Of a DNA stretch of 56,713 bases, positions 6,495 through 56,713 are shown piece after piece. The notes below the pieces were generated by a model. That model saw nothing but the letters and a program-made list of their open reading frames with translations, had not been told where the DNA came from and did no database searches. The stretch's first letter is position 1, and the number at the start of each line of letters is the position of its first letter. The position numbers and the translations under genes were made by a program. The stretch is from a virus: IMG/VR virus record IMGVR_UViG_3300037722_000354, positions 1 through 56,713 of that record. The stretch is one strand, 5' to 3'.

Positions 6495-6517
6495 ATCTCT
6501 CTCCGATGTCTAGTGAG

Positions 6518-7636: not shown

Positions 7637-7667
7637 CGTGGGCTCCGTTTTGCTGTTGGTAGGAAAA

Positions 7668-8912: not shown

Positions 8913-8967
8913 TCATAGGGGCTTTCTTGCTGCTTGCATCGGTGCTGCCGGGCGGTAGGATTGGAGA

Positions 8968-9651
8968 ATGATAGCCAACATTCTCCGCAAATTTTCTCAG
9001 CCGCCGCCCGCAATAGACCACCAGGGGCTGACTACCCGGCACGAAACCGGCGACCTATATGAGACGGAATTTGATCGTATCTTTCGCACGGCTTGCGCCC
9101 TCGATCCTTGGGCCGATGAGCGGCTTAGACTGCGCGTGTATTATCATTGCCGGTTCGCGCAAATTGCATTGAACGCGCCCGGCGATTTTCTTTTTGCCGG
9201 TGTTTCGTTTGGCGTTGCGCCGAAAGCCGTAACACTTGCCCTTGGCCCAGCGCTCGACAACCGGACCATTTATCTGGCGGACAAATGGCAGGGCCTTCGT
9301 GAATCTGGATCAAACCGAACGCGCGACGACTACTGCGCAGACGTTTCGCTTGTCAGAAAATTCTTCACAGAACCAAACGTCAAAATCGTCGAAGCCTACG
9401 TGCCTGACGCACTCGGCCAGATTGAAACCAAGCACATCGCATTCGCCGCGTTAAATACAGGTGACGTGGACGCGGATTGTGCGTCCCTGCCTTTACTATG
9501 GCCTCGCCTTTCGACTGGAGGAATGCTGATCTTGAACGGCTACGCGCAGAAACCAGAGAGGCATAAGCAATATCAAAACACGCTCTCCGCGCTTCCCGGC
9601 GCGATTGTCGTTAACCTGATGAACGGCTTCGGGCTTCTGTCTAAAGCCTAG
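8968..9651 (+). CDS. TylF/MycF-type class I SAM-dependent (O-)methyltransferase-like protein
   Basis: 227 aa. GDFLFAGVSFG...IYLADKWQGL...IAFAALNTGDVDAD...LSTGGMLILNGY matches the TylF-family pattern (GV.rG ... l.DsF.Gl ... lD.D.Y ... GG.i..DDY). Opposite strand to both flanking fibre genes. Confidence 0.5.
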   Translation: MIANILRKFSQPPPAIDHQGLTTRHETGDLYETEFDRIFRTACALDPWADERLRLRVYYHCRFAQIALNAPGDFLFAGVSFGVAPKAVTLALGPALDNRTIYLADKWQGLRESGSNRTRDDYCADVSLVRKFFTEPNVKIVEAYVPDALGQIETKHIAFAALNTGDVDADCASLPLLWPRLSTGGMLILNGYAQKPERHKQYQNTLSALPGAIVVNLMNGFGLLSKA

Positions 9652-11048
9652 CGCAGAGCCGCTAGCACCATCACCCTCGGGTTAGCCGCGTTCACATTGT
9701 CTCCCGTAACAGTCAGCCCGGTTTGTACCGAGGCAAATTCATCCGACGCGCCGCTGTGGTGCGAGTTACCCGTTCCTTCCACCGCCGCATCGAAATCTTC
9801 CGTAATGCCGGTCCATGTAAAGCCGGACGATCCACCCGGATAAGCCTGCACATATCCGAATAGTAGCCCGCCCGCTTCCACATCAATCGTTGTCGATGGC
9901 GGGTCTGCCGTCGAGTCCCCCGTATCGGTTGCCGTTGTACTCAACAATCCATAGGCTGAATACCAGCCTATTCCGCAGCGAAGTTGCGCATTGCTGTACG
10001 TTACAACGATATCCCCTGTGGTTCCTGTAGGAACCTCCGCGATATAGAGCGCGCAGGAAACATCTGCCGTATCCGTCCCGTTCAATCCTTGCTGGAAGTG
10101 CAATCGCGTGGCGGTGACGCCCGCGACCGTGACTGACGTAAACGGGTCGGCGGTCGTGTCCGTGTCCGTGCCGCCCGTGCCGACGACAATACACCTATCA
10201 GCCGCCTCGTCTCCGAGCGCAACGCTTGAGAATGTATAGACCGTCGCGTTTGTGCCACTGACAGACGAACCGAGGAAGGTCCGTGTAGCAGCGGCCACGC
10301 CACTCTCAGTCCCCTCCGCTACCGCTACACCAATCCCAACAATCGTACCGGCCTGCAATGCGTTCTTGATTACATTCGACGCAAGCACACCAACGCCGAC
10401 AATCGTTCCGTCATCTGTGGCATTGATCCCGCCCGTCGCGGCAGGATTGCCAATACTATCCAGCGCCGCATTGACGGTTCGGACACTTGCTCCATCTCCA
10501 TGTGCAATCCCCTCGCCAACAATAATTGCATTGGCAACGCCGGTTTTGAACACGTCCGCGACGGTAATTCCAATGCCTTCAATCTGCCCGTCGTCGGTAA
10601 ACGTCTTCGATCCGTCCGGCGTAAAGATTCCAATTCCGGTTATATCGACTTCGCCTGAGCGCGTGCTGGTCCCTTCGGATTGAGGATCGCCAAGGCTATC
10701 TAGTTCCGCAACGCCCGTATGTGCACCTGTTGCGTCCGTCTCAAGCGAGCCTTCGCCAACGATAGACCCGACAATGATCGCCTCGATATTCCCAACGCCG
10801 GAAAGCGAAGCGGTCGCGGAAATATCTCCGGTTACGATTGCAGTCTTAAACCCACTACCGGAAAACAGACCAATGCCGGTAACCTGGAAATTAATAATTT
10901 CCACTTCCAGAAGATCAAGCCCGACATCATAACTCGACCAGACGCCAACAATGCCATAGCGCGCCATTGAGCCAGTGACGGTGTGAACCGCCATCTCGCC
11001 CTCAACGTCATGGACTGCCCCGCGCCCGGAGACGGAATACTGTGCCAT
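9648..11048 (-). CDS. Tail fibre protein (paralogue of 7668-8912 at the N-terminus)
   Basis: 466 aa. Repeated VHDVEG/VHTVTG/RYGIVG nonapeptides, recurring ELDSLG/ALDSIG plus I(V)G-x-G modules, Gly/Thr-rich. Sits in the gp17 position of a T7-type virion module. Confidence 0.65.
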   Translation of the reverse strand: MAQYSVSGRGAVHDVEGEMAVHTVTGSMARYGIVGVWSSYDVGLDLLEVEIINFQVTGIGLFSGSGFKTAIVTGDISATASLSGVGNIEAIIVGSIVGEGSLETDATGAHTGVAELDSLGDPQSEGTSTRSGEVDITGIGIFTPDGSKTFTDDGQIEGIGITVADVFKTGVANAIIVGEGIAHGDGASVRTVNAALDSIGNPAATGGINATDDGTIVGVGVLASNVIKNALQAGTIVGIGVAVAEGTESGVAAATRTFLGSSVSGTNATVYTFSSVALGDEAADRCIVVGTGGTDTDTTADPFTSVTVAGVTATRLHFQQGLNGTDTADVSCALYIAEVPTGTTGDIVVTYSNAQLRCGIGWYSAYGLLSTTATDTGDSTADPPSTTIDVEAGGLLFGYVQAYPGGSSGFTWTGITEDFDAAVEGTGNSHHSGASDEFASVQTGLTVTGDNVNAANPRVMVLAALR

Positions 11049-11062
11049 TCATCGGACGCCAA

Positions 11063-11422
11063 TCAGGCGGTATCGCTGATCTGCAAATACGTCCCGGTCG
11101 AATTGATTGTGTAGGTTCCGTCGCCACCAAACGTCTCGTCCGTCACGTCCATGTAGCCCCAGATTGTGGTTCCGGTCGAAGTCCCGAGAATGCCCACATG
11201 CGAAACCGATGACCCGCCCGGCACGTTGAACGTCACGTTGGACGATAGGAACGCCTGCCCGGATGAAGCCGCGTCCCACGTGGCCGCTACACGGGCATAG
11301 GAGCCGCCCGAGATTTCATTACCGGCAATCGTTGATGGGACGGTCGAGAACAGCGCCATGAATGTTGCGGCAGAACTCATGAAATCGAGCATTCTGTTCT
11401 TGCCAAGATCGAAGAATGGCAT
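11063..11422 (-). CDS. Tail-fibre-associated virion protein
   Basis: 119 aa, MPFFDLGKNRMLD...GGSYARVAATW... This resembles small conserved phage tail-fibre proteins. Located immediately upstream of the fibre genes. Confidence 0.5.
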   Translation of the reverse strand: MPFFDLGKNRMLDFMSSAATFMALFSTVPSTIAGNEISGGSYARVAATWDAASSGQAFLSSNVTFNVPGGSSVSHVGILGTSTGTTIWGYMDVTDETFGGDGTYTINSTGTYLQISDTA

Positions 11423-27434: not shown

Positions 27435-29006
27435 TTATCTCCTTCTTCTTTTTTTCGAGCTGGAATAACCTAAATTCGCGAATTGCTGCTTGGGATGCCG
27501 AAACGACGATGACGCCTTGTGCAGATGTCTGGTCAGAACCTCTTGTCCCTCACTGAGGCACATCACCATCGCATCACCCTTGCCGGGCGAGCGACCGATG
27601 CGCTTCCTGATTTCTTCCTTGCTCTCAATCTGAATGCCGCGTGTCGTCAGCTTCCAGTGAGGCGTGGCAAGGTCCGCCCTGATTTCCGCACCGGGTGGCA
27701 ATGCAATGACAGACCCGCCCTCTTGATCCGGGTCCAGTTCCTCGCGCATTCGCCACCAAGCTTCCGCGCGCTTGTTCACAAACGATAGCTTGCCGTCTTT
27801 GGTCTTTGAGATTGATGTTGCCGCGCCATTAAATGCGTGATGATCAATCTCGTTATCCTTCAATCGAAGCGTGACAGCCCCGCCATATCCCCCGCCAACA
27901 TCGACAATCACCGGGGCATTGTGCCTGCGGTATTGAACGATCTTACCCGCCGCCCTTGATCCGTCCGCCGTTTCGTCGCCCTTGGCTGTCTGTGGTTCGG
28001 CAAACCAGCCCTGATGTCGCCAGATTAATTCTTCCGCGTCGTTCCCACCCCCGGCAGGATCGAGCGCCATCGAAGTCATGTTGCACTTCAGGTAGCCGTC
28101 CGATCTCCACCGAGACTGTGCGGCCATAACCCACGCGGTAGGAATGACCTGAAACGGATTATCCCTCAGGCTCGCGTCGAACCGTCCGTCCTTGTAAGCC
28201 GCTCTTAGTTCGGGCGGCAGCGCCGCTAGGACCGAGCCGTAGTTCGTTTCGGCAAGATCGGGGTTGTCGGCAAGCTCTGCCGGTATGAACGTTCTCGACC
28301 GGGCCATGATCTGCTCGTCGTCGATTAAATGCGGACCCGGCCCGTCAACTTCGGTGTCTTCCCCCTTGATTGTCGTGAACCAGCGCAACTCGCCCGGCTT
28401 GGCCGGATTCGGATGATTGGGATCGACCCACGGTGCCCAGTATTTCAGGACCCACAAGCCTTCTGGCGTTGTCGGAGGGTTGCCAGCGGCAACAATTCGG
28501 CACCTTTGCCGTTTATCCGCTGCGCGATTCCAACCAGCAATGAAGCGGTATTGCGTCTCGGTGAAGTCGGAAACCTCGTCGAACGCGATCAGGTCGTGCG
28601 GCGAGCCCTTGAACTTCTGCTTGTCGTCTTCGTGCTGGCAGCCGTTGACATCGATAATCCTGCCATCTATCCGCCAGATGTTATCCTGCCCGTTCCACCC
28701 GTCGCGGCTTCCGAGGATTTCGACGAACCGTTCGACCAGCTTTGTGGCCTCTTTGTTTGTTCGCCTTAGAACCAGCGACTTTTGGTGCTCGGTCAAGGAC
28801 AGGCCCACGATCAGGTCCGTCTTTCCGCCCCCCGCCTGCCCGCCGTAGAACAGTTCGTCCGCCGTTGAGAAGTACGCTTCCGTTTGCGGGCCGGGGTTCG
28901 GCTTCCACTTGTACCGGGCGTTCGCCTTCACCGCCGCCTGGATTGCCGCTTCCTTCTCCTTCACCGGCAGGGCGTTCAACGCCTGTAGAACTTCCTCTAG
29001 CTGCAT
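27435..29006 (-). CDS. terL: Terminase large subunit
   Basis: 523 aa. Walker A FYGGQAGGGKTD and Walker B DLIAFDEVSD, followed by a nuclease-domain-sized C-terminal half. Confidence 0.9.
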   Translation of the reverse strand: MQLEEVLQALNALPVKEKEAAIQAAVKANARYKWKPNPGPQTEAYFSTADELFYGGQAGGGKTDLIVGLSLTEHQKSLVLRRTNKEATKLVERFVEILGSRDGWNGQDNIWRIDGRIIDVNGCQHEDDKQKFKGSPHDLIAFDEVSDFTETQYRFIAGWNRAADKRQRCRIVAAGNPPTTPEGLWVLKYWAPWVDPNHPNPAKPGELRWFTTIKGEDTEVDGPGPHLIDDEQIMARSRTFIPAELADNPDLAETNYGSVLAALPPELRAAYKDGRFDASLRDNPFQVIPTAWVMAAQSRWRSDGYLKCNMTSMALDPAGGGNDAEELIWRHQGWFAEPQTAKGDETADGSRAAGKIVQYRRHNAPVIVDVGGGYGGAVTLRLKDNEIDHHAFNGAATSISKTKDGKLSFVNKRAEAWWRMREELDPDQEGGSVIALPPGAEIRADLATPHWKLTTRGIQIESKEEIRKRIGRSPGKGDAMVMCLSEGQEVLTRHLHKASSSFRHPKQQFANLGYSSSKKRRRR

Positions 29007-29739
29007 TCTGCTCCTGCATTCTTCCCAAGACGCCTACCGCATAAGGATGCTGGACATAGGTGTTGGCGTGATACGTGTTGTCGTCGAACGCACCCTTGAT
29101 GAACATATATTCGTCGCGGTTCGCAGCCTGCCTCGATTCGCATTCCTTCAGCCGCTGGAATAGTTCCACCTTGCGCACGTCGAGCTTGATCCTGTGCGGG
29201 TTATGTTCCGAATACCCGTACATCTGTTGCGGATAGAACAGGTCTGACTCGGGCGGAATGTCGATGAATATGCCGCGCTTCATCGCTTCCCATATGAAAA
29301 ACTGACAGGCGGGCTTTTGTCGTTCGTATTCTTCTGTTGCCGCCATATCGACGCCGCGCCAGCCAAGGACGCCTAAATCTTCTTCCTCAAGGGCAAGTGC
29401 TGCCATGTAGCTGAGCGAGCTTTGCCAGAAGAACGGCCCGTACTTGTCGAGCATCTTTTCAATCGGATAGCGCCGGGAGTTTGGAATCTCCGGGTGCGGC
29501 TCGATCATCCAGACCGGCCCTTTGAACTCGGTCAGGAATTTCCAGTACGGATCGGACTTCTTGAACCACGGGAAGTCTTCCGTGACCCGATGCAGTTCAA
29601 ACCAGACATCAACGCGCTTACCGGCTATTGCGGTAGCGCATCCGGGAGAGCAACCCCAAAGCAACCAGCTTGGGTCATTGTGCGGGGCCAAGCGTATCGA
29701 CGATGGGGCGCTCCCCAGAAGGCAAATGCGTTTCGACAT
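28681..29739 (-). CDS. Candidate Maf/GT42-like (nonulosonate) transferase; the 3' 325 nt overlap terL out of frame
   Basis: N-terminal RICLLGSAPSS...VDVWFELH and central SLSYMAALALEEEDLGVLGWRGVDM echo the GNGPSL and G-x-D motifs of CstII/DUF115 enzymes. The tail after about aa 245 is Arg/Gly/Pro-rich low complexity. Confidence 0.35.
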   Translation of the reverse strand: MSKRICLLGSAPSSIRLAPHNDPSWLLWGCSPGCATAIAGKRVDVWFELHRVTEDFPWFKKSDPYWKFLTEFKGPVWMIEPHPEIPNSRRYPIEKMLDKYGPFFWQSSLSYMAALALEEEDLGVLGWRGVDMAATEEYERQKPACQFFIWEAMKRGIFIDIPPESDLFYPQQMYGYSEHNPHRIKLDVRKVELFQRLKECESRQAANRDEYMFIKGAFDDNTYHANTYVQHPYAVGVLGRMQEQNAARGSSTGVERPAGEGEGSGNPGGGEGERPVQVEAEPRPANGSVLLNGGRTVLRRAGGGRKDGPDRGPVLDRAPKVAGSKANKQRGHKAGRTVRRNPRKPRRVERAG

Positions 29740-29748
29740 CGAGCCTCG

Positions 29749-30186
29749 TTACGATGAGATGACTGCGGCGGACGAGCCGTGATGATTGATAACGAGCCAG
29801 ATCGTGCTGATGTCCTGCAATTCCACACCGGCGCCCGCCGCCGTGAACAGGATGTTGAACATCGACGAGCCAGCCGTGCTCGTGATTGAGCCATTGCCGG
29901 ACGAGATAGTTACGGTCTGTTGGGTTGATGCGCTGTTTGCGACAATGCGAACTCTGCGGCCCGAACCGCTCGGCGTTGGAAGCGTGTAGGTCGCTGCGCT
30001 CGCTGCCGCGATCAGGTTGAGGCCGTAGTCTTTCAACGTGTCGGTCGTGGTCGTGAAAGTCGTATTCTCGCTCCAGCCCGCGATGTTCGTATCGAGCAGA
30101 GCATCGTTGACGGGATCGTGAACCTTGATTGCGCCGGTTGCCGGGTCGTACCCAAACATACGGCCATAGATGGAATGGTAAGCCAT
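29749..30186 (-). CDS. Ser/Thr-rich small protein (virion/decoration candidate)
   Basis: 145 aa with TTFTTTTDT and SASTQQTVTISSGNGSITSTAGSS tracts. The C-terminus IWLVINHHGSSAAVISS resembles that of ORF 22972-23244. Confidence 0.5.
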   Translation of the reverse strand: MAYHSIYGRMFGYDPATGAIKVHDPVNDALLDTNIAGWSENTTFTTTTDTLKDYGLNLIAAASAATYTLPTPSGSGRRVRIVANSASTQQTVTISSGNGSITSTAGSSMFNILFTAAGAGVELQDISTIWLVINHHGSSAAVISS

Positions 30187-30260
30187 TGTTGTTGTTCCCT
30201 GTTTTTGCTTATTGAGTCGTGCTTATTGATGGGCCGGGATGGCCATGCGCGTTTGTCTTA

Positions 30261-30283
30261 CAAAACCGCCCGCGCGGTGCGGC
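30261..30283 (-). terminator. GC-rich hairpin plus T-run directly after the stop of gene 30284-30670
   Basis: Minus strand reads TAA-GCCGCACCGCGCGGGCGG-TTTTG. Confidence 0.4.
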
Positions 30284-30670
30284 TTATAGGAATGTATGGA
30301 TCGGGGCGAGGAACGCCGTAAGCGACGTGGCCGTGGTCTGCGCCACCGCTCCGGTCGAACCGTCCGAAACCGGCTGAATGTACTGAAAGCCCGCGAATAT
30401 ATCCGGGCTGATGTAATGAACTTGGCTTGACGTGGCGGTGACAATGAATTGCGAGTTTGTCGAATTCATCAGGGTGTACATTGCCGATGTGGAATTGCCG
30501 ACCTTGAACGAGAGATACGCGGAATCCCAAACGGACGAGAGTGCAATCCCCGTAAGGGTCAGGCCCTTGGTGTCGAGCACGTCGCCAAGCCCGTCAGCCG
30601 CCGTGGATATTGCAAGCGATACGGACTGCTTCAGGCTTGGAACCTGTTGAGTCGGATAGACAATAGCCAT
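30284..30670 (-). CDS. Small Ser/Thr-rich protein with a strong RBS (abundant structural-protein candidate)
   Basis: 128 aa. RBS ccaaggagaaaaaataATG. Followed by a terminator-like hairpin. Confidence 0.55.
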   Translation of the reverse strand: MAIVYPTQQVPSLKQSVSLAISTAADGLGDVLDTKGLTLTGIALSSVWDSAYLSFKVGNSTSAMYTLMNSTNSQFIVTATSSQVHYISPDIFAGFQYIQPVSDGSTGAVAQTTATSLTAFLAPIHTFL

Positions 30671-30767: not shown

Positions 30768-31913
30768 TTAATTGTGATTCCAGATTGCATCTTTGGTCCA
30801 TTGCCCGTCACCGTTCTTTGCCCACACGCGCGGGTCGCGGAATTGATCCGCTGTTTGTTCAAACTTGGTTCTCGTCATGCCGACATAATCCAGCCAGCGA
30901 ACCAGATCGCTCGGGACTACATGATCGTATTGGCGGATTAACTCGATGCCTTCCGCCCGCGTCATTTCACCGGCACGAATATCCCGGCAAACATGATCGG
31001 TGCAGCGCCCGTAACCGAACTTGATGTATTTCAAATAGTCATGCACGCCATCGTGCATATTGTTCAGGTTGCAGTCCCGCTTGTAGGTACGGTCCATGGG
31101 AGCCGGATTCTGCTCGAATCCGTATTGCTCCTGCATCAATCTCGATTGACGGTTCTGATTCCAGACGAAGTAATTGGAAATGAACACGCCGCGCAGTTCG
31201 ATCCGCTCGATCTCCGCATCGCTCGGGTACTTCGCCCATTGCAAATCCCGTTCGGTCAGCCCTTCCTCGCCAAGGAAGTCAGTCCATTCATAGCCGTGCT
31301 GTAGATGCTCCTTGCGGAAGCGGGACGTGTATTCAACCATGTCCCGGTAGGAGTGCATTCCCCCAAGGTCCATGAAACCATGCTCGCCCCAGATAACGAG
31401 CTGTATCTGGTATTTGACCGCGATCTGCGTCGGGAAGCAGTTAATTCCCATGTGAGCGTGCATGTCGGTATCGCCCATCTTGCGAAGGCCAACACGGTTC
31501 AGCTTTTTCAATACCTCAATTGAGGGCGTGAAATTGATGTAGTCGCAATTGAAACAGTCTTTCATGCGCTGGATATTGCGCTTGCCGACTTCCGTCTCGT
31601 TGTTCTCGTTGTAGCAGACTAGGAGCGGGTTCATGCCGTATTGCTTGACGGTGTGAATCTGCCAGTAGCTGTCCTTGCCGCCCGAAACCGGGATTAAACA
31701 GTCGTAGCCGACCGGCCTGCGGTATTCGTCGCACAGTTCCGCGAACTGCTTCTCGCGTGCAGTCCAGTCTATTCCCTGTTTTTCCTCTGCCGTCCTGCAC
31801 CCGGAACAGACTTGCTCATTGTCGAAATGAACCGGCGCGGCGGCGATCATCGGGTAGCAGCAACGCTGGCAGTACGATTGCCTAGGCGGCGATGTCGTAG
31901 TCGAACCGGACAT
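30768..31913 (-). CDS. N-acetyl-sugar amidotransferase (PseA/WbuX-type PP-loop enzyme)
   Basis: 381 aa. N-terminal Cys pairs CQRCC...CSGC and the PP-loop LIPVSGGKDS, as in the acetamidino-forming LPS/flagellin-glycan amidotransferases. Confidence 0.7.
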   Translation of the reverse strand: MSGSTTTSPPRQSYCQRCCYPMIAAAPVHFDNEQVCSGCRTAEEKQGIDWTAREKQFAELCDEYRRPVGYDCLIPVSGGKDSYWQIHTVKQYGMNPLLVCYNENNETEVGKRNIQRMKDCFNCDYINFTPSIEVLKKLNRVGLRKMGDTDMHAHMGINCFPTQIAVKYQIQLVIWGEHGFMDLGGMHSYRDMVEYTSRFRKEHLQHGYEWTDFLGEEGLTERDLQWAKYPSDAEIERIELRGVFISNYFVWNQNRQSRLMQEQYGFEQNPAPMDRTYKRDCNLNNMHDGVHDYLKYIKFGYGRCTDHVCRDIRAGEMTRAEGIELIRQYDHVVPSDLVRWLDYVGMTRTKFEQTADQFRDPRVWAKNGDGQWTKDAIWNHN

Positions 31914-32583
31914 TAAAACCTTGCCGTCTTAGGTATTGCTTCGCCCGTTTGTACGAGGACTCCACGAAGTGGAAGATGTTACCTGCGGCCACTGCGTGGG
32001 CTCCGGATATGAGGGCGTCTCGGAAATGTGAATAGTCCCCGCAGCCTCCCGCTGCCACCACGGGGATCGTGATTCCGCCCGCAACTCGCTCAATTGCTGC
32101 ACAATCAAAGCCAATTGCCGTTCCATCGCGCTCAATCGCGTGGAGAAAGATTTCTCCCGCGCCCTTGGCTTCCGCTTCTTGCGCTGTTTCTGCATTTCCA
32201 TCATCCACCGAAACCACAACCGCCTGTGAGCCGAACTTGTCCGCTATGCTCTCGATCAGGCCGGGTATCTTCGCACCCCTGCCGATCAATACCTTGTCCG
32301 CACCGTTCCTGATTAATCTTGCCGCATCGTCGAGCGACCGCACATTCCCGCCAACGGTGAGCGGCATGAAAGCCCTGTCTGCAATTGCACGGAGCAATTC
32401 ATCCCCGATGCCGGGGCCGTCCCTCGTTATGTCAATGTAGCAAACCTCGTCTGCCTGCCATTCGTCGTAACGGGCCAACTCGTCGAACGGATTGCCTATG
32501 ACCTTGAACTCACTGCACCGCTCGCTTCTGACGATCCGCCCGTTCATTAGAAAGATGACGGGGATAATTCGCGTCGTCAGCAT
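31882..32583 (-). CDS. HisF-like (imidazole glycerol phosphate synthase cyclase-type, WbuZ-like) protein
   Basis: 233 aa from the ATG at 32583. RIIPVIFLMNGRIV...LTVGGNVRS...PVVAAGGCG is the (beta/alpha)8 HisF pattern. Overlaps both neighbours. Confidence 0.7.
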   Translation of the reverse strand: MLTTRIIPVIFLMNGRIVRSERCSEFKVIGNPFDELARYDEWQADEVCYIDITRDGPGIGDELLRAIADRAFMPLTVGGNVRSLDDAARLIRNGADKVLIGRGAKIPGLIESIADKFGSQAVVVSVDDGNAETAQEAEAKGAGEIFLHAIERDGTAIGFDCAAIERVAGGITIPVVAAGGCGDYSHFRDALISGAHAVAAGNIFHFVESSYKRAKQYLRRQGFNVRFDYDIAA

Positions 32584-33203
32584 TTCTCCACCACAATCAA
32601 CGCCGCCGGGTTCTCCGGGTTCGCATCCAAGCCCCACAATTCGCACTTGGGCTCATATCCCAATTCCAGAATTGCAGCGGGCAACCCCCGCACATAGCCA
32701 AACATATCCATCCTTGCCCGCGCGCTTTCGTGCGCCAGTTCATAGGACGGCTCGACCATCACAAGTGCCTTGCGGGTCACTCGTAATAGCTCCCTCAATA
32801 TCTCCATCTCACGTCCGCCGTTCGGTTCAATCGCGTGATAGGTCGTAACCACGTCGAACGACTCGCTACCCAACGGGATTGCATCCAATGGCGACTGGAT
32901 GAACATTCCAGTCAGGCCGTTGTCCCGCATGTGCTTACGTGCGATGTCGAGCCTCGGAAGCGATATATCAAAACCTAGAACTCGTCTTGGCTTGACCTTC
33001 ATTGCCAGCAGAAGCGGCACAAGCGTTGTCGCCTCGCCCGTTCCTGCGTCCAATAGATTAACCGGCTCATATCGCTCAATGACGCTGGCGAGCTTCTTGC
33101 CTATTTCGGCCTTTTGATCGGCGTAAGTCTGGTTGGCTAATGCTGCGATGTAGGTTCCGGCTTGCAGGTCGTAGGACTGTTCAATCTCGGCGGTGGTTCT
33201 CAA
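32577..33203 (-). CDS. Class I SAM-dependent methyltransferase
   Basis: 208 aa. LLDAGTGEATT (motif I-like) and FDVVTTYHAIEP. The TTG start overlaps the stop of the upstream micro-ORF. Confidence 0.6.
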   Translation of the reverse strand: MRTTAEIEQSYDLQAGTYIAALANQTYADQKAEIGKKLASVIERYEPVNLLDAGTGEATTLVPLLLAMKVKPRRVLGFDISLPRLDIARKHMRDNGLTGMFIQSPLDAIPLGSESFDVVTTYHAIEPNGGREMEILRELLRVTRKALVMVEPSYELAHESARARMDMFGYVRGLPAAILELGYEPKCELWGLDANPENPAALIVVEKC

Positions 33204-33307
33204 GACGTTGCCCGCACCACAACAAAGATTAACGAAGCGATTGAAATGCCGAGGGCGAAAAAAGCGAGCGCAAGCGCCACCATGACGGCCCCGTATGCGT
33301 CGCTCAC
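33200..33307 (-). CDS. Micro-ORF encoding a single-TM peptide (35 aa)
   Basis: A GTG start forms GTGA with the PhyH stop, and its TGA overlaps the TTG start of the methyltransferase. Peptide (M)SDAYGAVMVALALAFFALGISIASLIFVVVRATS. Confidence 0.35.
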   Translation of the reverse strand: MSDAYGAVMVALALAFFALGISIASLIFVVVRATS

Positions 33308-34080
33308 GGCTTCACCACCAGATTAGCCCGCCCGCAATCCCGCCCGACATAAGGCGTCACATCAAACTCCCCGCTCAATGTCAAATCATCCTCCGGCGTC
33401 CACACCCGCGTAACGCACGCGAAGCTATAACCATCCGACGTGTTCGGGTTGGAACGATGAATCAAATTCCTGTCGAAGACAATCAAATCCCCGCGCTTGC
33501 TCTCGCAAACATGCTCAGGGAATTCAGCCACGAAATTCTCAGGCACCTCGAATTGACGGAAAGCGTTCTGTCCCTCTTGATATTCCGCAAACGGCCAGTC
33601 CCGCTTATGGCTCCCGAGCTTCACGCTCATCACCCCGTTGTCCTTGGTCTTGTCGGCAAATACCGGAAACCAGATGTTCAGGAAGCGGCGGCGCTTGGGA
33701 TAGTAATGCGCCTCGCTATGCCATTTATAAAGCAGCCGTGTTGTGTTCGGGCGGTTGATAAGCAAGCCCGGCCCGCTGATTAAGAGATTCCTCGTACTGC
33801 ATTGCAAGAGGCCAGCGCACGTCTCGCGGAATTGCTCACCGAATAACTCCCCAACCCAAGGCGAGAGTGGCAGCATCTTCTGCACCTGATAGAGTGCTTC
33901 CTTGTCCTTGGCTTCCATCGCCTCGCAGATCGCCGGTAGATCGTCCGGCAAATCGCTGTAGTCAGCTATCTTGTGGGCCTGGAGCGAATAAAGCCTTGTG
34001 ATCGATTGCTCGAATTCAGTCAGATCATCCAGATCGAAGAAGCGCTTGATATGGGTAAAGCCCCTGTCGGCAAAACTCAC
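33304..34080 (-). CDS. Phytanoyl-CoA dioxygenase (PhyH)-family Fe(II)/2-oxoglutarate oxygenase
   Basis: 258 aa. WHSEAHYY (H-x-D/E facial-triad context) and a distal NLIHRS His. Size and pattern fit PhyH. Confidence 0.55.
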   Translation of the reverse strand: MSFADRGFTHIKRFFDLDDLTEFEQSITRLYSLQAHKIADYSDLPDDLPAICEAMEAKDKEALYQVQKMLPLSPWVGELFGEQFRETCAGLLQCSTRNLLISGPGLLINRPNTTRLLYKWHSEAHYYPKRRRFLNIWFPVFADKTKDNGVMSVKLGSHKRDWPFAEYQEGQNAFRQFEVPENFVAEFPEHVCESKRGDLIVFDRNLIHRSNPNTSDGYSFACVTRVWTPEDDLTLSGEFDVTPYVGRDCGRANLVVKP

Positions 34081-34709
34081 GTCTTGCCTTTCTCAAATAA
34101 CCAATAATGTAAATTATCCAACCCCGTCTCTCGCTTCCAAATAAATCCATAACTCAAGCATTTCAAATCGGGAAAGCTATCCATCCAGAACGAACCGAAG
34201 TCCCGCTTGAACAGCTTGTCCTCGTTATACCGATAAGGAATGCTCACCGGCGTATCGTTGAAATATTCAATGCAGGCGACCCACCGGGAGGCACACCGAT
34301 GGATCGACCTGCACGAGTCAGCCAATTCATGGGGAGGGACATGAATCAGGACGCCGGAAGTGAAAGCCAGTTCGGCTACATTGTCGGGAAACCCGATATT
34401 CTGTGCCGTCCCGTCGATGACCTGTTCGCACAGCCCGGTTAGTTCAAGGTCTGTCCTTGCCTGTTCGTTCGGTTCGACCGCGTAGAACTTGGGCCTTCCA
34501 TCCAACAGGTAATTGAGCGATTTGATATTGAGGCCGGTATTGGACCCGACTTCCAGAATACTCCCCGGCACCTTGCCAAGCGCAAGCATTATGCGAGCCC
34601 ACAAGAGATTATAGGCTGGCAGGTAGTCCTCATCGTTCCTGATCGAATATGAGTTTCCGAAACTCCCGCGCCAGAATTCCTCTTGCGGTGTAATGCCGTT
34701 TGCCTTCAC
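34077..34709 (-). CDS. Pseudaminic-acid-biosynthesis-associated methylase family protein
   Basis: The GTG at 34709 makes a GTGA overlap (the ORF extends to 34742). QEEFWRGSFGNSYSIRN...ILEVGSNTGLNIKSL matches the family pattern FW.g.FG..Y..RN ... iLE.G.N.G.NL. Confidence 0.65.
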   Translation of the reverse strand: MKANGITPQEEFWRGSFGNSYSIRNDEDYLPAYNLLWARIMLALGKVPGSILEVGSNTGLNIKSLNYLLDGRPKFYAVEPNEQARTDLELTGLCEQVIDGTAQNIGFPDNVAELAFTSGVLIHVPPHELADSCRSIHRCASRWVACIEYFNDTPVSIPYRYNEDKLFKRDFGSFWMDSFPDLKCLSYGFIWKRETGLDNLHYWLFEKGKT

Positions 34710-34960
34710 AGTTTGCGCGCCTTCAGTTCGCCGCCTTCCCATGTGACCGCGTGGGTTTCACCAACCCAACCGCGCGGGAGTATGGCATCATGAAGCGCAA
34801 TCTCAAGCTGGCGAACGCGGTTTTCCCAATGACCCCGCTCATAGTTCAATCGCTGTATGGCGTGTGTAACCATCGGCCTAGTCACTGCTTCGCCACGGCC
34901 AGCCCAATCGTGAAGTTCCTGTAAATGGTCGTCCAGCTCATACTTGAAAACCTCAGGCAT
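34706..34960 (-). CDS. Hypothetical small protein within the sugar cluster
   Basis: 84 aa from the ATG at 34960 (8-nt overlap with the PseI-like stop). No motif recognised. Confidence 0.45.
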   Translation of the reverse strand: MPEVFKYELDDHLQELHDWAGRGEAVTRPMVTHAIQRLNYERGHWENRVRQLEIALHDAILPRGWVGETHAVTWEGGELKARKL

Positions 34961-35699
34961 GAATTGCCTCGACCATCTGCCTGAATTCGTCCGGCTCCAA
35001 TGAGAACGCAGCGTCAGGCCCGCCATTCGAGCGAGATAGCGTTATGTGCTTCTCAATGATCTGGGCGTTGTAGTTCTTGACCGCGCTGACCGCCGCTTCA
35101 ATACCGGGCGTATGATCGGAGAAGCCTATGCGCCTCGACGGCAAGGCCCTATGCAACTCCCTTATTCTGTGAAGCATCGCTTCCTCAATCTTGCACGGGT
35201 AGCGTGAGACACAATGCAAGTATGAAATATCGTTATCCGGTAGCTCTGGTATATCCTTGCCGGGTAGTGAAATTACGATTGGCTTGCCGGTATCTGCCGC
35301 CGACATAATCAGCCGCCCGTCGCCCGCCTCCATCGCACTGATCTTGTACGCAGGGCACCCGAGCGTTTCGAGAAACTCAATATCCTTCACATCGAATACC
35401 GACGAGAAGACCTGAATTCCAATATCCCGCCCGTATTCAAATAGCTTGGGAAACCATTCCCTTGGCGTGTGCGTCTCGCGGTACAGGTCCAGCAGATTGC
35501 GCCCGTCCCACAATCCGCCCGACAGCACCTTATCCTTGCCGCCCCTGCGTTCGGCCAATCGTTCTGGATCGAAACATTGCAGCTTGGCAGCGTCAGCGCC
35601 CGCATCCTTCGCGGCCCGGATCAATGTCAATGCGTTCGTGAACTGCCCGCGATGCTCGCCGCTTAGCTCGGCAATGATAAACGGCTTAGCGAAGCGCAT
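34953..35699 (-). CDS. pseI: Pseudaminic acid synthase-like (NeuB-family nonulosonate synthase) without a SAF domain
   Basis: 248 aa. FIIAELSGEH...AAKLQ...AYKISA...GFSDHT... is the NeuB TIM-barrel pattern. It ends before the usual C-terminal SAF/antifreeze-like domain. Confidence 0.7.
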   Translation of the reverse strand: MRFAKPFIIAELSGEHRGQFTNALTLIRAAKDAGADAAKLQCFDPERLAERRGGKDKVLSGGLWDGRNLLDLYRETHTPREWFPKLFEYGRDIGIQVFSSVFDVKDIEFLETLGCPAYKISAMEAGDGRLIMSAADTGKPIVISLPGKDIPELPDNDISYLHCVSRYPCKIEEAMLHRIRELHRALPSRRIGFSDHTPGIEAAVSAVKNYNAQIIEKHITLSRSNGGPDAAFSLEPDEFRQMVEAIHA

Positions 35700-36093
35700 A
35701 GGTTTCCTGAATCAGCTTGAAGCCCTGATCCTTGAAGAACTCGATGCTCCGGGAATTCCTGGGCGAGACGTTCGCCAGCATCTTGCCCGGCCAGTATTTG
35801 CGCAATTGGGCCAATGCCTCTGCCCCATAGCCCTTGCCCGCGTGCTTCTGGAACAGGAACAGCCCGACCTCTCTCTGCTTGCTCAGATAGATAGAGCCTA
35901 CAATCTCATCATCGTTGTGGATCAGATACCAAGCTTTGTACGGGACGGAATTCACGAACTCGACGTGCTGCTCATAGCTCGGCATGGAGCAATGGCTGAT
36001 GCTTTGGTCCGCCGTGCGTTCGGCCAATAGCTCGTAGAGAATGCGGCAGGTCTGTTCGGTAGGACCGCATTTGTAGATGTTGCGCAGATTCAT
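35686..36093 (-). CDS. pseH: GNAT N-acetyltransferase (PseH-like)
   Basis: 135 aa. ...IVGSIYL...KHAGKGYGAEAL...SIEFFKDQGFKL contains the GNAT Q/R-x-x-G-x-G/A acetyl-CoA motif (HAGKGYG). Sits between the PseF-like and PseI-like genes. Confidence 0.6.
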   Translation of the reverse strand: MNLRNIYKCGPTEQTCRILYELLAERTADQSISHCSMPSYEQHVEFVNSVPYKAWYLIHNDDEIVGSIYLSKQREVGLFLFQKHAGKGYGAEALAQLRKYWPGKMLANVSPRNSRSIEFFKDQGFKLIQETYALR

Positions 36094-36725
36094 GCGGCTT
36101 GGCGGGCCTGCATGAATTCCGCCAATCGCTTAATATCCTCTGCATAGTCAATGGTATATCGGTCGTCGGTCATTTTGCGCAGCGACGACAATTCAGCTGT
36201 CTCGCAGTTGCTCTGCATCCAAGAAGTGACGTGCTCCCGATCATATGGGTCAGTAGCTTCCGTGTTTGCCTGCGCAAGCGCACGCATAGTAAAGGCCTCA
36301 CAATCATAGCCGCGTGGCCACGTCCGCCTCGGATACACGTTGCTCGCGTAGTCCACGCACAACGCAAAACGAAGGGCTATTACGCGGTCACATAGAAAAG
36401 GCTCAATCAATGGGCAGTCGCCAGTAATGCGAACAATAACATCGACGTCACTAAGCCCAAAAGACTCCGCCGCATTATAGAACCGCGTCAGAACGTCATT
36501 CTCATCGCACTGGTCATACCAAGCGCGGAAGTCGCATTCGTCAATGACAGGCTGTAGTGCGTCTGCGTCAGCATATGGTGCCGCTACGCAATAATGGTCC
36601 GCTTTAATCTGTTTCGCCCTCGTCAGCACATGCCATAGCACTGGATGGCCGCATAGCTCAGCCATGACCTTTCCGGGGAAACGCTTGGAGCCAAGTCTTG
36701 CTTGAACTATGACGGCGGTCCTCAT
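36090..36725 (-). CDS. pseF: Cytidylyltransferase (PseF/SpsF-type CMP-nonulosonate synthetase)
   Basis: 211 aa. N-terminal AVIVQARLGSKRFPGKV is the signature of acylneuraminate/SpsF-type cytidylyltransferases. Confidence 0.7.
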   Translation of the reverse strand: MRTAVIVQARLGSKRFPGKVMAELCGHPVLWHVLTRAKQIKADHYCVAAPYADADALQPVIDECDFRAWYDQCDENDVLTRFYNAAESFGLSDVDVIVRITGDCPLIEPFLCDRVIALRFALCVDYASNVYPRRTWPRGYDCEAFTMRALAQANTEATDPYDREHVTSWMQSNCETAELSSLRKMTDDRYTIDYAEDIKRLAEFMQARQAA

Positions 36726-37306: not shown

Positions 37307-37418
37307 ATATCAGTTTAATCACTACGACCAATAACAAGACTCCGGCGATTGACCAGCAATAGATCAAATAGGATCGCCACGCGGGATCAGCCCAAATCTC
37401 TTTGATTTCGCGAATCAT
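37287..37418 (-). CDS. Micro-ORF encoding a single-TM peptide (43 aa)
   Basis: The ATG forms ATGA with the PseB-like stop, and the ORF overlaps the PseC-like start by 20 nt. Peptide MIREIKEIWADPAWRSYLIYCWSIAGVLLLVVVIKLIYVLRSI. Confidence 0.4.
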   Translation of the reverse strand: MIREIKEIWADPAWRSYLIYCWSIAGVLLLVVVIKLIYVLRSI

Positions 37419-38254
37419 ATCGTCTCCAATGCGCGGGTTAATTCAGGAACCGCCATCCTACGGGCGGCATCACTCGAATTGCCATCGCACATTGCTTCGT
37501 GCTGTTTCTCATATTTGGGCAGGCCAATAACGTTAATCTGCTTCCCCATCGCCTCTGCAAGATCGGCCAGTCGGTAAGCAGGCAGCGTCGGGATATTCAA
37601 CTCCCCGCCCTTCATTGTCTCAATCGTCTTGATTACCAGATCAATCGCTTCGTCCATCAGCATCCAGAACCTGGTACAGTCAGGATCGGTCACGGGGACC
37701 ACGCCGTTCATCCCGCGCCATCTTGGAATTACCGAGCCCTGCGAGCCAGCGACGTTTCCATATCTCGTGACAGCGAATATCGGCCCGTCCTCGCCCCGCG
37801 TATTGTTGGCGTTCAGGAACAGGCTTTCAGCCAATGCCTTGGTCTGGCCGTAAGGACTCACCGGCTGATATGCCTTGTCGGTGCTTAGTGCGACGACCTT
37901 CTGAACCCCGGCATCCTGGGCGGCTTCAATGACGTTCATGGCTCCGTGAACGTTCGTCTTCACCATTTCTCCGGGATTGTACTGCCCGACCTCGATACGC
38001 TTTAGTGCGGCGGCGTGTACGACCAGATCGACTCCACTAAAAGCACGCCTAAGCCTATCCCTATCGCGCACGCACCCGAGTAAATAACGAACTCGACTAT
38101 CATTGATATCATCGGCCATCTCGGCTTGCTTGTGTTCGTCCCTCGATAGAACAGCTACACGCCTTGGCTTGTGGTCGCGCAATAATCTCTTGACGAATGC
38201 CCTGCCGAAACTGCCCGTGCCACCTGTAATCAGGACCGATTGGCCGTCGATCAA
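37415..38254 (-). CDS. pseB: UDP-GlcNAc 4,6-dehydratase (PseB/FlaA1/CapD-type short-chain dehydratase)
   Basis: 279 aa. VLITGGTGSFG...VHAAALK...STDKA...YGQTK...RYGNVAGSQGSV follows the PseB sequence pattern closely. The TTG start overlaps the terS-like stop (cATTGA). Confidence 0.8.
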   Translation of the reverse strand: MIDGQSVLITGGTGSFGRAFVKRLLRDHKPRRVAVLSRDEHKQAEMADDINDSRVRYLLGCVRDRDRLRRAFSGVDLVVHAAALKRIEVGQYNPGEMVKTNVHGAMNVIEAAQDAGVQKVVALSTDKAYQPVSPYGQTKALAESLFLNANNTRGEDGPIFAVTRYGNVAGSQGSVIPRWRGMNGVVPVTDPDCTRFWMLMDEAIDLVIKTIETMKGGELNIPTLPAYRLADLAEAMGKQINVIGLPKYEKQHEAMCDGNSSDAARRMAVPELTRALETI

Positions 38255-38589
38255 TGTGCAGTCTCTTGCTTCTGCTTAACGGCGCGGGCCAGAAGGAATG
38301 AAACTTCACGCGCGGCTTCGGTGTCGTTTACCGTGCGAATCTCAAGCGGATTGTCGGGGTCACCAGTCAGTTGCATTGCTTGCGCGGGCTTGCCGTCTAA
38401 GCGGTCTGCGATTTCCCGGATTGCCCAGCCTTCACCATTCCCAGCCAGTTCGAGAAGCTTCTTGGCTATTTCGCGCAGCGCTTTATGGTCTGCACCAACA
38501 GCAGCTATTTCCATCCGAAGCGCATCGGCAAACGGCTTCTCTATCTTCCGCCCATCTGGGTTTCCAGATTGGCCAGGCTTCCACGCCAT
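38251..38589 (-). CDS. terS: Terminase small subunit candidate (GQSGNP-motif family)
   Basis: 112 aa from the ATG at 38589, MAWKPGQSGNPDGRK... The N-terminal GQSGNP.GR motif is common in small terminases of alphaproteobacterial phages. First gene of the late array. Confidence 0.5.
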   Translation of the reverse strand: MAWKPGQSGNPDGRKIEKPFADALRMEIAAVGADHKALREIAKKLLELAGNGEGWAIREIADRLDGKPAQAMQLTGDPDNPLEIRTVNDTEAAREVSFLLARAVKQKQETAH

Positions 38590-38859
38590 TGCTAGCAATC
38601 CTAAATTATTGTGTTGTCTAAGCCCTATCGTCTCGATGATGGGGGATGGGGATTGTTGGAACACATTTGATTTCGGAACGAATCCTTCACGCACCCTTCC
38701 GGGGCGGGATAGACCAAATCATAGGCATATTACTTTGCCAACCTCTCAGCGCATATCGCCATGCCTGAGACGCGGGCTCTCAGACATTTAGTCCTTTGTA
38801 CTCAGTGCCTGGCTGCTATCAATTCTTCACCGCTCATTCCGAGCGGAGGAGAAACGAAA

Positions 38860-39325: not shown

Positions 39326-39922
39326 CTACGACGCAAGGCCCAACGCTTTCTTTAGTGCCATATTTCGTGCCTCGCCGTCAAGAGCGTCTATACCTCGTAG
39401 GGCGTCATACGGACTGATCCGAACTCCGACAGGGCCGCTGTCCTGTTCGCCCACATTATCCCGCGTCTTTCGGCGGCGTCGGCGCTTCCCGGCGACCTCC
39501 AAAACGTCCTGTGCATAGGCTTCCCGAATCCGCAGATGGTCAATCATGGTGTCAGGCGCTACCGCCGCGACACCCGCCGCATAGACTATCGCCTTCACCC
39601 CCGGACAGGCCAGAATGCGCCGTCGATGCTCCATTAAATCCCACACGAATACAAATACATAGCCTGGAAACAGGGTTTTGTCCCTGCTTAGTATACGCCG
39701 AAAGCGATCCTTGAACTTCACCGTCAGGCTAGGAAGAAACACCCCAAAGCGCCGGGCGGCCAAGTGAGCAGCGGCCACAAATTCATGTGTCGGGTACGTC
39801 TCTACGATATGCCAAAGCGGGTCTGTCTCAGGCACTATCGTTGCCTCGATAACCCCTAGCTTTTGGGCTTCGTCTGCCGCCAAGGCCAGCAACCGCTCAT
39901 GATCGACCGCAAGCATTGCCAT
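39326..39922 (-). CDS. NusG/RfaH-family (NGN domain) transcription antitermination factor
   Basis: 198 aa. WHIVETYPTHEFVAAAHL...VFLPSL...TLFPGYVFVFV...CPGVKAIVY...APDTMIDHLR follows the NGN pattern (W.vv.t...E...flP...lFPGYvFV...gV..iv...v....i..l). Confidence 0.7.
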   Translation of the reverse strand: MAMLAVDHERLLALAADEAQKLGVIEATIVPETDPLWHIVETYPTHEFVAAAHLAARRFGVFLPSLTVKFKDRFRRILSRDKTLFPGYVFVFVWDLMEHRRRILACPGVKAIVYAAGVAAVAPDTMIDHLRIREAYAQDVLEVAGKRRRRRKTRDNVGEQDSGPVGVRISPYDALRGIDALDGEARNMALKKALGLAS

Positions 39923-56518: not shown

Positions 56519-56701
56519 ATGCGCCGCCCCTCCCTACTGACGCAGGCTGAGGTTGCCCGAGCAATACGGGCAGCGAAGCAATGCGGGGCTGAGGGTGTGG
56601 AAATACGCCCGGACGGTACGATTCTGGTTCGCTTGTCCCCGATCCCCACAGTGCCGGAGGCCGAGGATCAGGCTACAGCCGAGCGGGAGGTCGTACTATG
56701 A
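56519..56701 (+). CDS. Small protein translationally coupled to the integrase (excisionase/accessory candidate)
   Basis: 60 aa. LTQAEVARAIRAAKQCGAEGVEIRPDGTILV. Its stop overlaps the int ATG (ATGA). Its 3' part is duplicated at 1-115 because of the closure repeat. Confidence 0.55.
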   Translation: MRRPSLLTQAEVARAIRAAKQCGAEGVEIRPDGTILVRLSPIPTVPEAEDQATAEREVVL

Positions 56702-56713
56702 CCGAAATGCCCC
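56587..56713. repeat. 127-bp terminal direct repeat, copy 2
   Basis: Identical to bases 1-127. Confidence 0.9.

Follow-up and report, generated by a model that had tools for sequence, protein, structure and literature searches.

A compact pseudaminic acid-type gene block of an environmental phage with a WbuX/WbuZ pair and no glutaminase

The IMG/VR virus record IMGVR_UViG_3300037722_000354 (positions 1 to 56,713; hereafter the window, that is, the whole stretch of 56,713 nucleotides that was analyzed) contains on its minus strand a block of sugar genes in which compact genes of pseudaminic acid (Pse) biosynthesis are followed by five tailoring genes. Two of these encode the amidotransferase WbuX and the HisF-like barrel WbuZ, both under purifying selection, while the glutaminase HisH (WbuY), the third component of the bacterial system, was found neither in the window nor in four related phage contigs. 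The components and their chemistry are of known kinds; what is new is the glutaminase-less, loop-trimmed WbuX/WbuZ pair, the association with a PhyH-family oxygenase, and the miniaturized phage pathway. Tentatively, we suggest that several environmental phage lineages may make a nonulosonic acid that has not been described so far, a Pse derivative that is acetamidino-modified, possibly N-methylated, hydroxylated and O-methylated, that WbuZ may be essential without a glutaminase, and that PhyH may represent a new class of tailoring oxygenases tied to the amidotransferase. The exact structure of this sugar is a prediction.

A WbuX/WbuZ pair without a glutaminase

The tailoring genes occupy positions 30768-34742, downstream of the compact core Pse genes:

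30768..31913, minus strand: WbuX-type N-acetyl sugar amidotransferase (NASAT), a PP-loop ATPase of 381 amino acids (aa), TIGR03573
31882..32583, minus strand: WbuZ, a HisF-like TIM barrel of 233 aa, short form without beta-alpha loops 2 and 5, His_biosynth E=2.5e-39
32577..33203, minus strand: class I S-adenosylmethionine-dependent methyltransferase (MT2), 208 aa, Methyltransf_25/11/31
33304..34080, minus strand: PhyH-family Fe(II)/2-oxoglutarate oxygenase, 258 aa, PF05721
34077..34742, minus strand: pseudaminic-acid-biosynthesis-associated methylase, 221 aa, TIGR03587, 152 bits against a cut-off of 112.05

An earlier note on this DNA had assigned these five genes to the same families and placed them at 30768-34709. 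Profile matches to TIGR03573, WbuZ, Methyltransf, PF05721, and TIGR03587 agreed with the assignments; the range needed a small correction, as the methylase gene ends 33 nt further, at 34742.

The WbuX product scored 318.8 bits against TIGR03573 (cut-off 203.2), covering positions 2-343 of the 344 in the profile, and matched the solved Legionella NASAT structure (PDB 8WEX) with E=1.6e-46. NASAT enzymes are marked by the PP-loop SGGxDS and the zinc-binding motif CxxCxn[GN]xCxxC (PMC10607449). The PP-loop SGGKDS at residues 77-82 and the tetracysteine C15/C18/C36/C39, the positions of which bind zinc in the Legionella structure, were invariant in a 14-sequence alignment; the third cysteine motif deviates slightly, with Q instead of G or N two residues before the third Cys. 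The closest bacterial relatives are alphaproteobacterial proteins with 65-72% identity, encoded within HisH-HisF-WbuX trios and situated in NeuB-containing clusters. The ratio of nonsynonymous to synonymous substitutions (dN/dS) relative to phage orthologues was 0.10-0.13. Judged by these features, the PP-loop protein can be regarded as a true WbuX orthologue.

The listed open reading frame (ORF) of wbuZ, 31882-32646, begins 21 codons too early; its start was placed at the ATG at 32583 because of the homologues and the upstream GGAG. This start overlaps the MT2 stop codon (ATGCTGA), the 3' end of the gene overlaps the start of WbuX by 32 nt, and the WbuZ-WbuX adjacency is also present in the relatives. 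The best NCBIfam families are those of WbuZ (TIGR03572, NF038364), matched at 181.7 bits in two stretches and below the cut-off of 299.7, a shortfall explained by two loop deletions. The HisF model TIGR00735 gave 174.2 bits, under its cut-off of 294.55. The cyclase residue D11 is replaced by F inside an FLMNG motif, a feature common to phage WbuZ and bacterial WbuZ encoded beside WbuX, and the alignment showed that the channel-gate residues R5/E46/K99/E167, the HisH-contact residue D98, and Q123 and D130 are kept. The HisF-like protein thus has the hallmarks of a true WbuZ orthologue rather than of a stray HisF. The possibility that the PP-loop and HisF-like ORFs belong to unrelated families, raised in the earlier note, can be set aside given the identity of WbuX to trio members, up to 72%, and the D11-to-F signature. 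Phage WbuZ is under purifying selection (dN/dS 0.06-0.18 relative to phage orthologues).

HisH was sought with a hidden Markov model built from three bacterial WbuY proteins encoded beside close WbuX homologues. In the six-frame search of the complete window genome, the best match had E=1.9, while the positive controls in their own loci scored 351-374 bits. No tblastn match for HisH in the window was better than E=2.8, and Pfam scans of the 95 window ORFs revealed neither a glutamine amidotransferase (GATase) of any class nor a glycosyltransferase. The first 127 nt of the window are exactly repeated as its last 127 nt (1-127 and 56587-56713). The window is therefore a complete phage genome of ~56.6 kb, either terminally redundant or assembled as a circle, and the absence of HisH, reported in the earlier note from inspection of the ORFs, is genome-wide.

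The same HisH-less arrangement was present in four related phage contigs, whose WbuX shares 80-85% identity with that of the window: L001 (IMGVR_UViG_3300037755_000177 in IMG/VR), L002, L003, and L013, the last recovered via its PhyH. The six-frame HisH search of these four yielded no accepted match. A 179-aa ORF upstream of PseB in L001 resembled HisH at E=0.2 (E=0.09 in a smaller search) and was treated as noise; no GATase was found in it by the Pfam scan, and its C-terminus matches the DUF5681 protein of the window.

For comparison, 80 bacterial and archaeal species-representative loci with WbuX 51-72% identical to that of the window were analyzed. HisH and HisF were both encoded within 6 kb of WbuX in 69 of the 80, in the order HisH-HisF-WbuX in 67 of these 69. 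When the count was limited to the 61 loci flanked by 3 kb or more on each side, 56 carried both genes; four carried neither, and one apparently had HisF only, although there HisF is cut at the edge of the stretch and HisH may lie just outside. A HisF-like gene without HisH is thus essentially unseen in these bacterial loci and fixed in the phage clade of the window. The same state was found in a second, unrelated viral group (L107, L109, and L151, WbuX ~28% identical). It was also found in the phage contigs L108 and L123, but these stretches start at or beside the genes in question, so that HisH could lie outside. Ten other viral NASAT genes had neither HisF nor HisH nearby.

Phage WbuZ differs from its bacterial counterparts in two loops on the catalytic face. 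Beta-alpha loop 5 comprises 3 residues, versus 19-25 in 68 of the 69 HisH-partnered bacterial WbuZ and 55 in the other one; beta-alpha loop 2 comprises 7 residues, versus ~20 in 65 of the 69. Among the compared WbuZ proteins, both loops are lost in the phage clade only. Such a change would fit the loss of the apparatus that couples substrate binding to glutaminase activation. Many distant WbuZ relatives are short (up to 245 aa) and align in a single stretch, as does phage WbuZ. Five others (P0373, P0378, P0380, P0426, and P0454) are 460-520 aa long, with the HisF-like part in the C-terminal half, a length fitting a HisH-HisF fusion.

The retention of WbuX and WbuZ under purifying selection without a glutaminase speaks for a function of the HisF-like barrel beyond the relay of ammonia from glutamine. 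The pair may be viewed as a natural deletion experiment and offers a minimal two-protein system for reconstitution.

Core pathway, oxygenase and methyltransferases

Upstream of the tailoring genes, the block contains the following genes:

37415..38254, minus strand: PseB-type inverting UDP-N-acetylglucosamine 4,6-dehydratase, 279 aa, TIGR03589
36722..37306, minus strand: half-size DegT/PseC-like aminotransferase, 194 aa, DegT_DnrJ_EryC1 E=2.1e-21
36090..36725, minus strand: CMP-sugar cytidylyltransferase (PseF-like role), 211 aa, CTP_transf_3 E=2.3e-22
35686..36093, minus strand: GNAT N-acetyltransferase (PseH-like role), 135 aa, Acetyltransf_3/1
34953..35699, minus strand: PseI-like nonulosonate synthase without the C-terminal SAF domain, 248 aa, NeuB PF03102 E=3.9e-58
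34706..34960, minus strand: small ORF of 84 aa, no Pfam or NCBIfam family match

PseB scored 327 bits against TIGR03589, compared with 182 for FnlA and 62 for LegB, and PseI scored 247 bits against TIGR03586, compared with 170 for NeuB; the respective cut-offs of 407.75 (equivalog) and 340.25 were not reached. The PseC-like protein (score 46, cut-off 423.5) keeps the pyridoxal phosphate (PLP) lysine in SFHxSK and lacks the C-terminal domain, and the cytidylyltransferase reached 17.7 bits of the 205.7 set for PseF. The scores of these four enzymes fall below the NCBIfam cut-offs because the proteins are truncated. PseH is represented by a generic GNAT only, and no PseG/GT28-like ORF was found by the Pfam scans of the 95 window ORFs. 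The module therefore does not consist of the equivalogs of the canonical six-enzyme route to CMP-pseudaminic acid, being a truncated, PseG-less version of it, and since no glycosyltransferase is encoded either, the host must supply those steps.

Miniaturization is consistent among the phages (the window, L002, L013, L118, and L123). PseB has ~280 aa, the SAF domain is absent from PseI in all phage copies according to the alignment, and the PseC-like enzyme, equally short in L002 and L013, has 194-199 aa in phages versus ~380-400 aa in bacteria. Enzymes so much shorter than their bacterial counterparts and below curated cut-offs, together with the lack of PseG and HisH, could be taken for the remnant of a dead pathway, with PseC, PseI, and WbuZ in decay. 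We find this hardly credible, because the same short lengths recur in at least five divergent phage contigs and every gene of the block has a pairwise dN/dS of 0.05-0.3 relative to phage orthologues (0.12 for the large terminase, TerL), with synonymous sites near saturation. Moreover, the catalytic motifs (PP-loop, HxE...H triad, PLP lysine) are kept, frameshifts are absent, and start and stop codons overlap. The half-size PseC and SAF-less PseI show the extent to which such enzymes can be shortened and may serve as starting points for enzyme engineering.

The PhyH protein matched PF05721 with 57.7 bits and E=2.6e-15 (cut-off 22). Residues H121, E123, and H208, assigned to the iron triad (H-x-E...H) by motif, were invariant across 16 homologues. 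None of the 80 closest bacterial and archaeal WbuX loci has PhyH, and the first two bacterial contexts of PhyH homologues, L011 and L012, contained no sugar cluster. A wider PhyH-based scan reversed this impression: WbuX or Pse markers accompany PhyH in 29 of the 41 loci that span 4 kb or more. Bacterial-looking loci L127, L128, L131, L171, L178, and L184 encode PhyH together with HisH and HisF, in the order PhyH-HisH-HisF-WbuX in L127 and L128 and PhyH-methylase-WbuX-HisH-HisF in L184; WbuX overlaps PhyH in L186, L189, and L190. The same compact enzymes, differently ordered, make up phage modules in L106, L108, L116, L118, L123, and L145, and in L123, a P22-like phage, the module again lies beside DUF5681 and terminase genes. 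This PhyH subfamily is thus a recurrent member of nonulosonate clusters in environmental genomes. The earlier note had called the combination of a dioxygenase with two methylases unusual; the combination proved to be recurrent in environmental genomes, although no published description of it was found. In the marine bacterial contig L011 (7089-9897), the PhyH homologue is located directly downstream of glmS, encoding glucosamine-6-phosphate synthase, an amino-sugar setting unlike that of the nonulosonate clusters.

The presence of PhyH in all HisH-less phage modules, and its position adjoining or overlapping WbuX in L171, L186, L189, and L190, would be expected if PhyH replaced the glutaminase. 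WbuX would then couple another amine, for example, an amino acid, to the acetyl group, and PhyH would strip its carbon skeleton oxidatively so that the free amidine is left, as MysH acts on mycosporine-like amino acids. Among proteins of solved structure, MysH is one of the closest to this PhyH subfamily (E=6e-5), but this similarity is weak (25 bits) and human PhyH scores equally. In the six bacterial-looking loci listed above, PhyH coexists with HisH, and therefore it does not act as a substitute for the glutaminase; we consider such a replacement very improbable.

The TIGR03587 methylase is separated from the PseI stop codon only by the 84-aa ORF. Of the 80 bacterial WbuX loci, 17 contain homologues of it, and in at least 12 of these the gene is an immediate neighbor of the HisH-HisF-WbuX genes, which suggests that it methylates the amidine itself or a group close by. 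N-methyl-acetimidoyl legionaminic acids occur in Legionella and Campylobacter. Bacterial homologues of MT2 are 50-55% identical and ~298 aa long, and several are annotated at source with a Trm112/YbaR-family region; the two MT2 homologue loci examined were both NeuB/CTP_transf_3 (cytidylyltransferase) clusters. Searches of PDB sequences with MT2 and the Pse methylase gave no match. The PhyH subfamily and the Trm112-type methyltransferase are candidates for nonulosonate modifications that have no assigned enzymes.

Source of nitrogen and point of action

On balance, and with moderate confidence, we favor an ammonia-dependent WbuX/WbuZ pair that forms an acetamidino Pse, which is then methylated and hydroxylated. 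In the scheme that we infer, the miniaturized PseB, PseC, GNAT, PseI, and cytidylyltransferase would produce CMP-activated pseudaminic acid, with the host filling the missing steps. WbuX would adenylate the carbonyl oxygen of an N-acetyl group, and ammonia would displace AMP to give the acetamidino group, WbuZ being an obligatory partner or channel. The ammonia would be taken directly from the cell and not from a dedicated glutaminase. The TIGR03587 methylase would most likely methylate the amidine or a neighboring group, PhyH could hydroxylate the sugar itself or an N-acyl group on it, and MT2 could cap the hydroxyl made by PhyH or another position. Finally, host transferases would place the modified sugar on host or virion glycoconjugates.

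The glutaminase reportedly matters only when ammonium is scarce, as Jones et al. 2012 are said to have observed for aglXYZ. In Methanococcus maripaludis, deletion of the HisF-like gene MMP1083 resulted in smaller flagellins and deletion of the HisH-like gene MMP1082 did not (PMC2952790, a preliminary description). The earlier note had named free ammonia or a host glutaminase as the nitrogen source; the former thus has a precedent, but the present data do not discriminate between the two.

Several points weigh against the favored scheme. The roles of PhyH and of both methylases are best guesses assigned from gene context alone, and the core pathway is presumed to be active solely because its genes are under purifying selection. 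The close relative L001 (TerL 89% identical) keeps PseB-PhyH-MT2-WbuZ-WbuX at 6359-11122, without PseC, the cytidylyltransferase, GNAT, PseI, and the TIGR03587 methylase. Therefore, the block is modular and its tailoring part persists without the phage core pathway, so that the tailoring enzymes may act on a UDP-hexosamine intermediate or a host-made sugar rather than on phage-made CMP-Pse. Finally, of the WbuZ positions conserved in at least 80% of the 69 HisH-partnered bacterial proteins, the phage clade kept 22 of 26 on the bottom, HisH-facing side and 23 of 31 on the top, catalytic side, the strand and helix boundaries being approximations based on Thermotoga maritima HisF. The HisH-docking face is therefore as conserved as the rest of WbuZ, which fits a recruited host glutaminase equally well.

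Such recruitment would mean that phage WbuZ docks a class I glutaminase of the host, either WbuY or the HisH of histidine synthesis, and that glutamine-derived ammonia is tunneled to phage WbuX, saving the phage one gene. One glutaminase subunit can serve two synthases, as does the amphibolic TrpG/PabA of Bacillus subtilis. The retained bottom face would be consistent with docking, as would the gate residues R5/E46/K99/E167 with D98 and Q123. The divergence of WbuZ is also not accelerated relative to WbuX: phage-bacterium comparisons lie on the regression line of bacterial WbuZ versus WbuX identity, with residuals of 0 to -0.07 and a bacterial standard deviation of 0.06. Since the closest WbuX relatives (65-72%) are found in alphaproteobacteria with the full trio, a related WbuY would be expected in a plausible host. 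However, phage WbuZ is only ~50-55% identical to the nearest bacterial WbuZ, the deleted catalytic-face loops may take part in synthase-glutaminase coupling, and the retained residues may be merely structural or parts of the channel. In addition, the ten viral NASAT genes with neither partner, and the dispensability of the glutaminase in archaeal genetics (PMC2952790), speak for amidination without it. We regard the use of a host glutaminase as rather doubtful.

The gene content of L001 would be explained if tailoring took place earlier, on the UDP-2-acetamido-2,6-dideoxy-L-hexose made by PseB, in the same way as WbuX acts on N-acetyl-L-fucosamine in Escherichia coli O145. The product would feed downstream enzymes of the host or phage, or end as a modified 6-deoxy-hexosamine and not as a nonulosonate. 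L001 retains exactly PseB-PhyH-MT2-WbuZ-WbuX, PhyH lies directly beside PseB in L116, L118, L145, and L158, and the characterized WbuX and WbpG work on hexosamine derivatives (PMC10607449). On the other hand, the tailoring genes of the window, L002, L003, L013, and L123 invariably share their cluster with PseI and a cytidylyltransferase, the closest bacterial WbuX relatives occur in NeuB-containing clusters, and association with Pse is what defines the TIGR03587 family. Early action therefore appears unlikely to us, and tailoring of a Pse scaffold by an ammonia-dependent pair is retained as the favored scheme.

Genomic setting and comparison with known systems

The genome encodes an integrase, a LexA-like repressor domain, a T7-type portal, a capsid protein, a GH108 endolysin, and the large terminase, whose nearest relatives are podoviruses, such as the Bordetella BPP-1 group, and Acidovorax and Caulobacter phages. 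The phage looks like a temperate podovirus. Its host is probably an alphaproteobacterium, because of GcrA genes and the closest WbuX relatives (Rhodospirillales, Tagaea, Hyphomicrobiaceae). Two GcrA-like cell-cycle regulators, a DnaA C-terminal domain gene, and a YAcAr/SLOG-domain gene are among the window ORFs, and a NusG-like gene is located at 39326-39922; a tRNA scan of the window found none.

The sugar block belongs to a minus-strand gene run from ~46.5 kb down to 3.5 kb and lies between a DUF5681 gene (38251-38694) and three ORFs preceding the large terminase. Its order on the minus strand is PseB, PseC-like, cytidylyltransferase, GNAT, PseI, 84-aa ORF, TIGR03587 methylase, PhyH, MT2, WbuZ, and WbuX. 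Most junctions overlap by 4-14 nt, and in a scan of the window promoter and terminator sites were no commoner than in shuffled sequence. The overlapping start and stop codons and the absence of excess promoter or terminator signals thus suggest that the block is one operon continuous with the packaging genes. The 84-aa ORF occupies the 210-nt gap between PseI and the methylase, its ATG overlapping the PseI stop codon (ATGCCTGA); at the corresponding place, L013 carries an 83-aa ORF that is unrelated to it.

The ORFs between WbuX and the large terminase are as follows:

28681..30670, minus strand: three conserved ORFs of 128, 145, and 352 aa, with orthologues after WbuX in L001, L002, L003, and L013

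They had no match in Pfam, NCBIfam, PHROGs, or PDB, and AlphaFold2 without an alignment gave a mean pLDDT of 39.5 for the 352-aa protein. The missing transferase or hydrolase could be among them.

A DUF5681 gene adjoins the sugar module near the large terminase in two phage lineages (38251-38694 in the window and 7307-7657 in L123). In L001, the P22 gp3-type small terminase family (GP3_package) was among the matches of a Pfam scan that included the six ORFs upstream of the module. The sugar module may sit between the small and large terminase genes. On the strand opposite to the block, at 8968-9651 (plus strand), the window has a TylF-family O-methyltransferase gene (PF05711, E=5.2e-07) flanked by two large ORFs of 414 and 466 aa, possibly tail-fiber genes. 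It looks like a moron, which may be expressed from the prophage, and would be the third sugar-type methylase of the genome.

Comparison of the 8.7-kb module with 50,697 GenBank phage records by megablast gave no match, nor did tblastn with WbuX and PhyH against these records. PseI had three weak matches only, and HisF matched only ordinary hisF genes in apparently host-derived records. WbuX, PhyH, and the Pse methylase have no family in PHROGs. In the searchable literature, we found no paper joining "phytanoyl-CoA dioxygenase" with "pseudaminic" and no description of a phage-encoded acetamidino pathway; pseI is already known among viral auxiliary genes (PMC6359870). Flagella, capsules, and O-antigens carry acetamidino and methylated nonulosonic acids, which phages and immune systems recognize. 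A near-complete surface-sugar pathway beside the terminase suggests that, during infection, these phages remodel the sugar coat of the host or of their own virions.

The closest known counterpart of the tailoring part is the three-component acetamidino-forming system WbuX/WbuY/WbuZ of E. coli O145 (LfnA in Pseudomonas aeruginosa O12; AglX/AglY/AglZ in M. maripaludis). The window shares with it an SGGxDS NASAT with four zinc-binding Cys, a HisF-like barrel with D11 replaced by F immediately upstream of WbuX, the order HisF-WbuX, and the setting in an amino-sugar or nonulosonate cluster. Unlike this system, it is phage-encoded, lacks the HisH-like glutaminase and loops 2 and 5 of WbuZ, and has PhyH and an extra methyltransferase between the methylase and WbuZ. 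With imidazole glycerol phosphate synthase (HisH/HisF), the window protein has in common the TIM barrel and the conserved R5/E46/K99/E167, D98, Q123, and D130; it differs in having Phe at position 11, no HisH, two catalytic-face loops deleted, and a context of sugar tailoring instead of histidine biosynthesis.

As in the Pse5Ac7Am flagellin pathway of Campylobacter jejuni with PseA, the window encodes PseB- and PseC-type enzymes, a GNAT, a PseI-type synthase, a cytidylyltransferase, and a WbuX-family amidotransferase, and the predicted product is an acetamidino pseudaminic acid. The Campylobacter Pse locus presumably also carries hisH/hisF-like genes. In contrast to PseB/C/H/G/I/F and PseA of C. 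jejuni, the window lacks PseG and a Maf-type transferase, has truncated core enzymes (PseC 194 aa, PseB 279 aa), and adds two methylases and an Fe/2-oxoglutarate oxygenase. WbuX aligns with the Legionella pneumophila NASAT (PDB 8WEX) over residues 27-369, with the PP-loop and tetracysteine in common. As for the N-methyl-acetimidoyl legionaminic acid of the Legionella O-antigen, a methylase accompanies the amidotransferase, suggesting an N-methylated amidine. The differences are a Pse and not a legionaminic acid context, a length of 381 aa versus 468 aa, and QVCSGC in place of [GN]xCxxC.

Prophage genes of Acinetobacter baumannii are known to modify host nonulosonic acids (PMC12053666, PMC6586298). 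There, as in the window, the fine structure of host Pse or legionaminic acid is altered by phage genes, namely those for EpaA/EpaB (8-epimerization) and 4-O-acetyltransferases. The A. baumannii cases involve one or two genes acting on a host-made sugar and placed as a separate moron, whereas the window carries most of the pathway and five tailoring genes, inside the operon of packaging genes.

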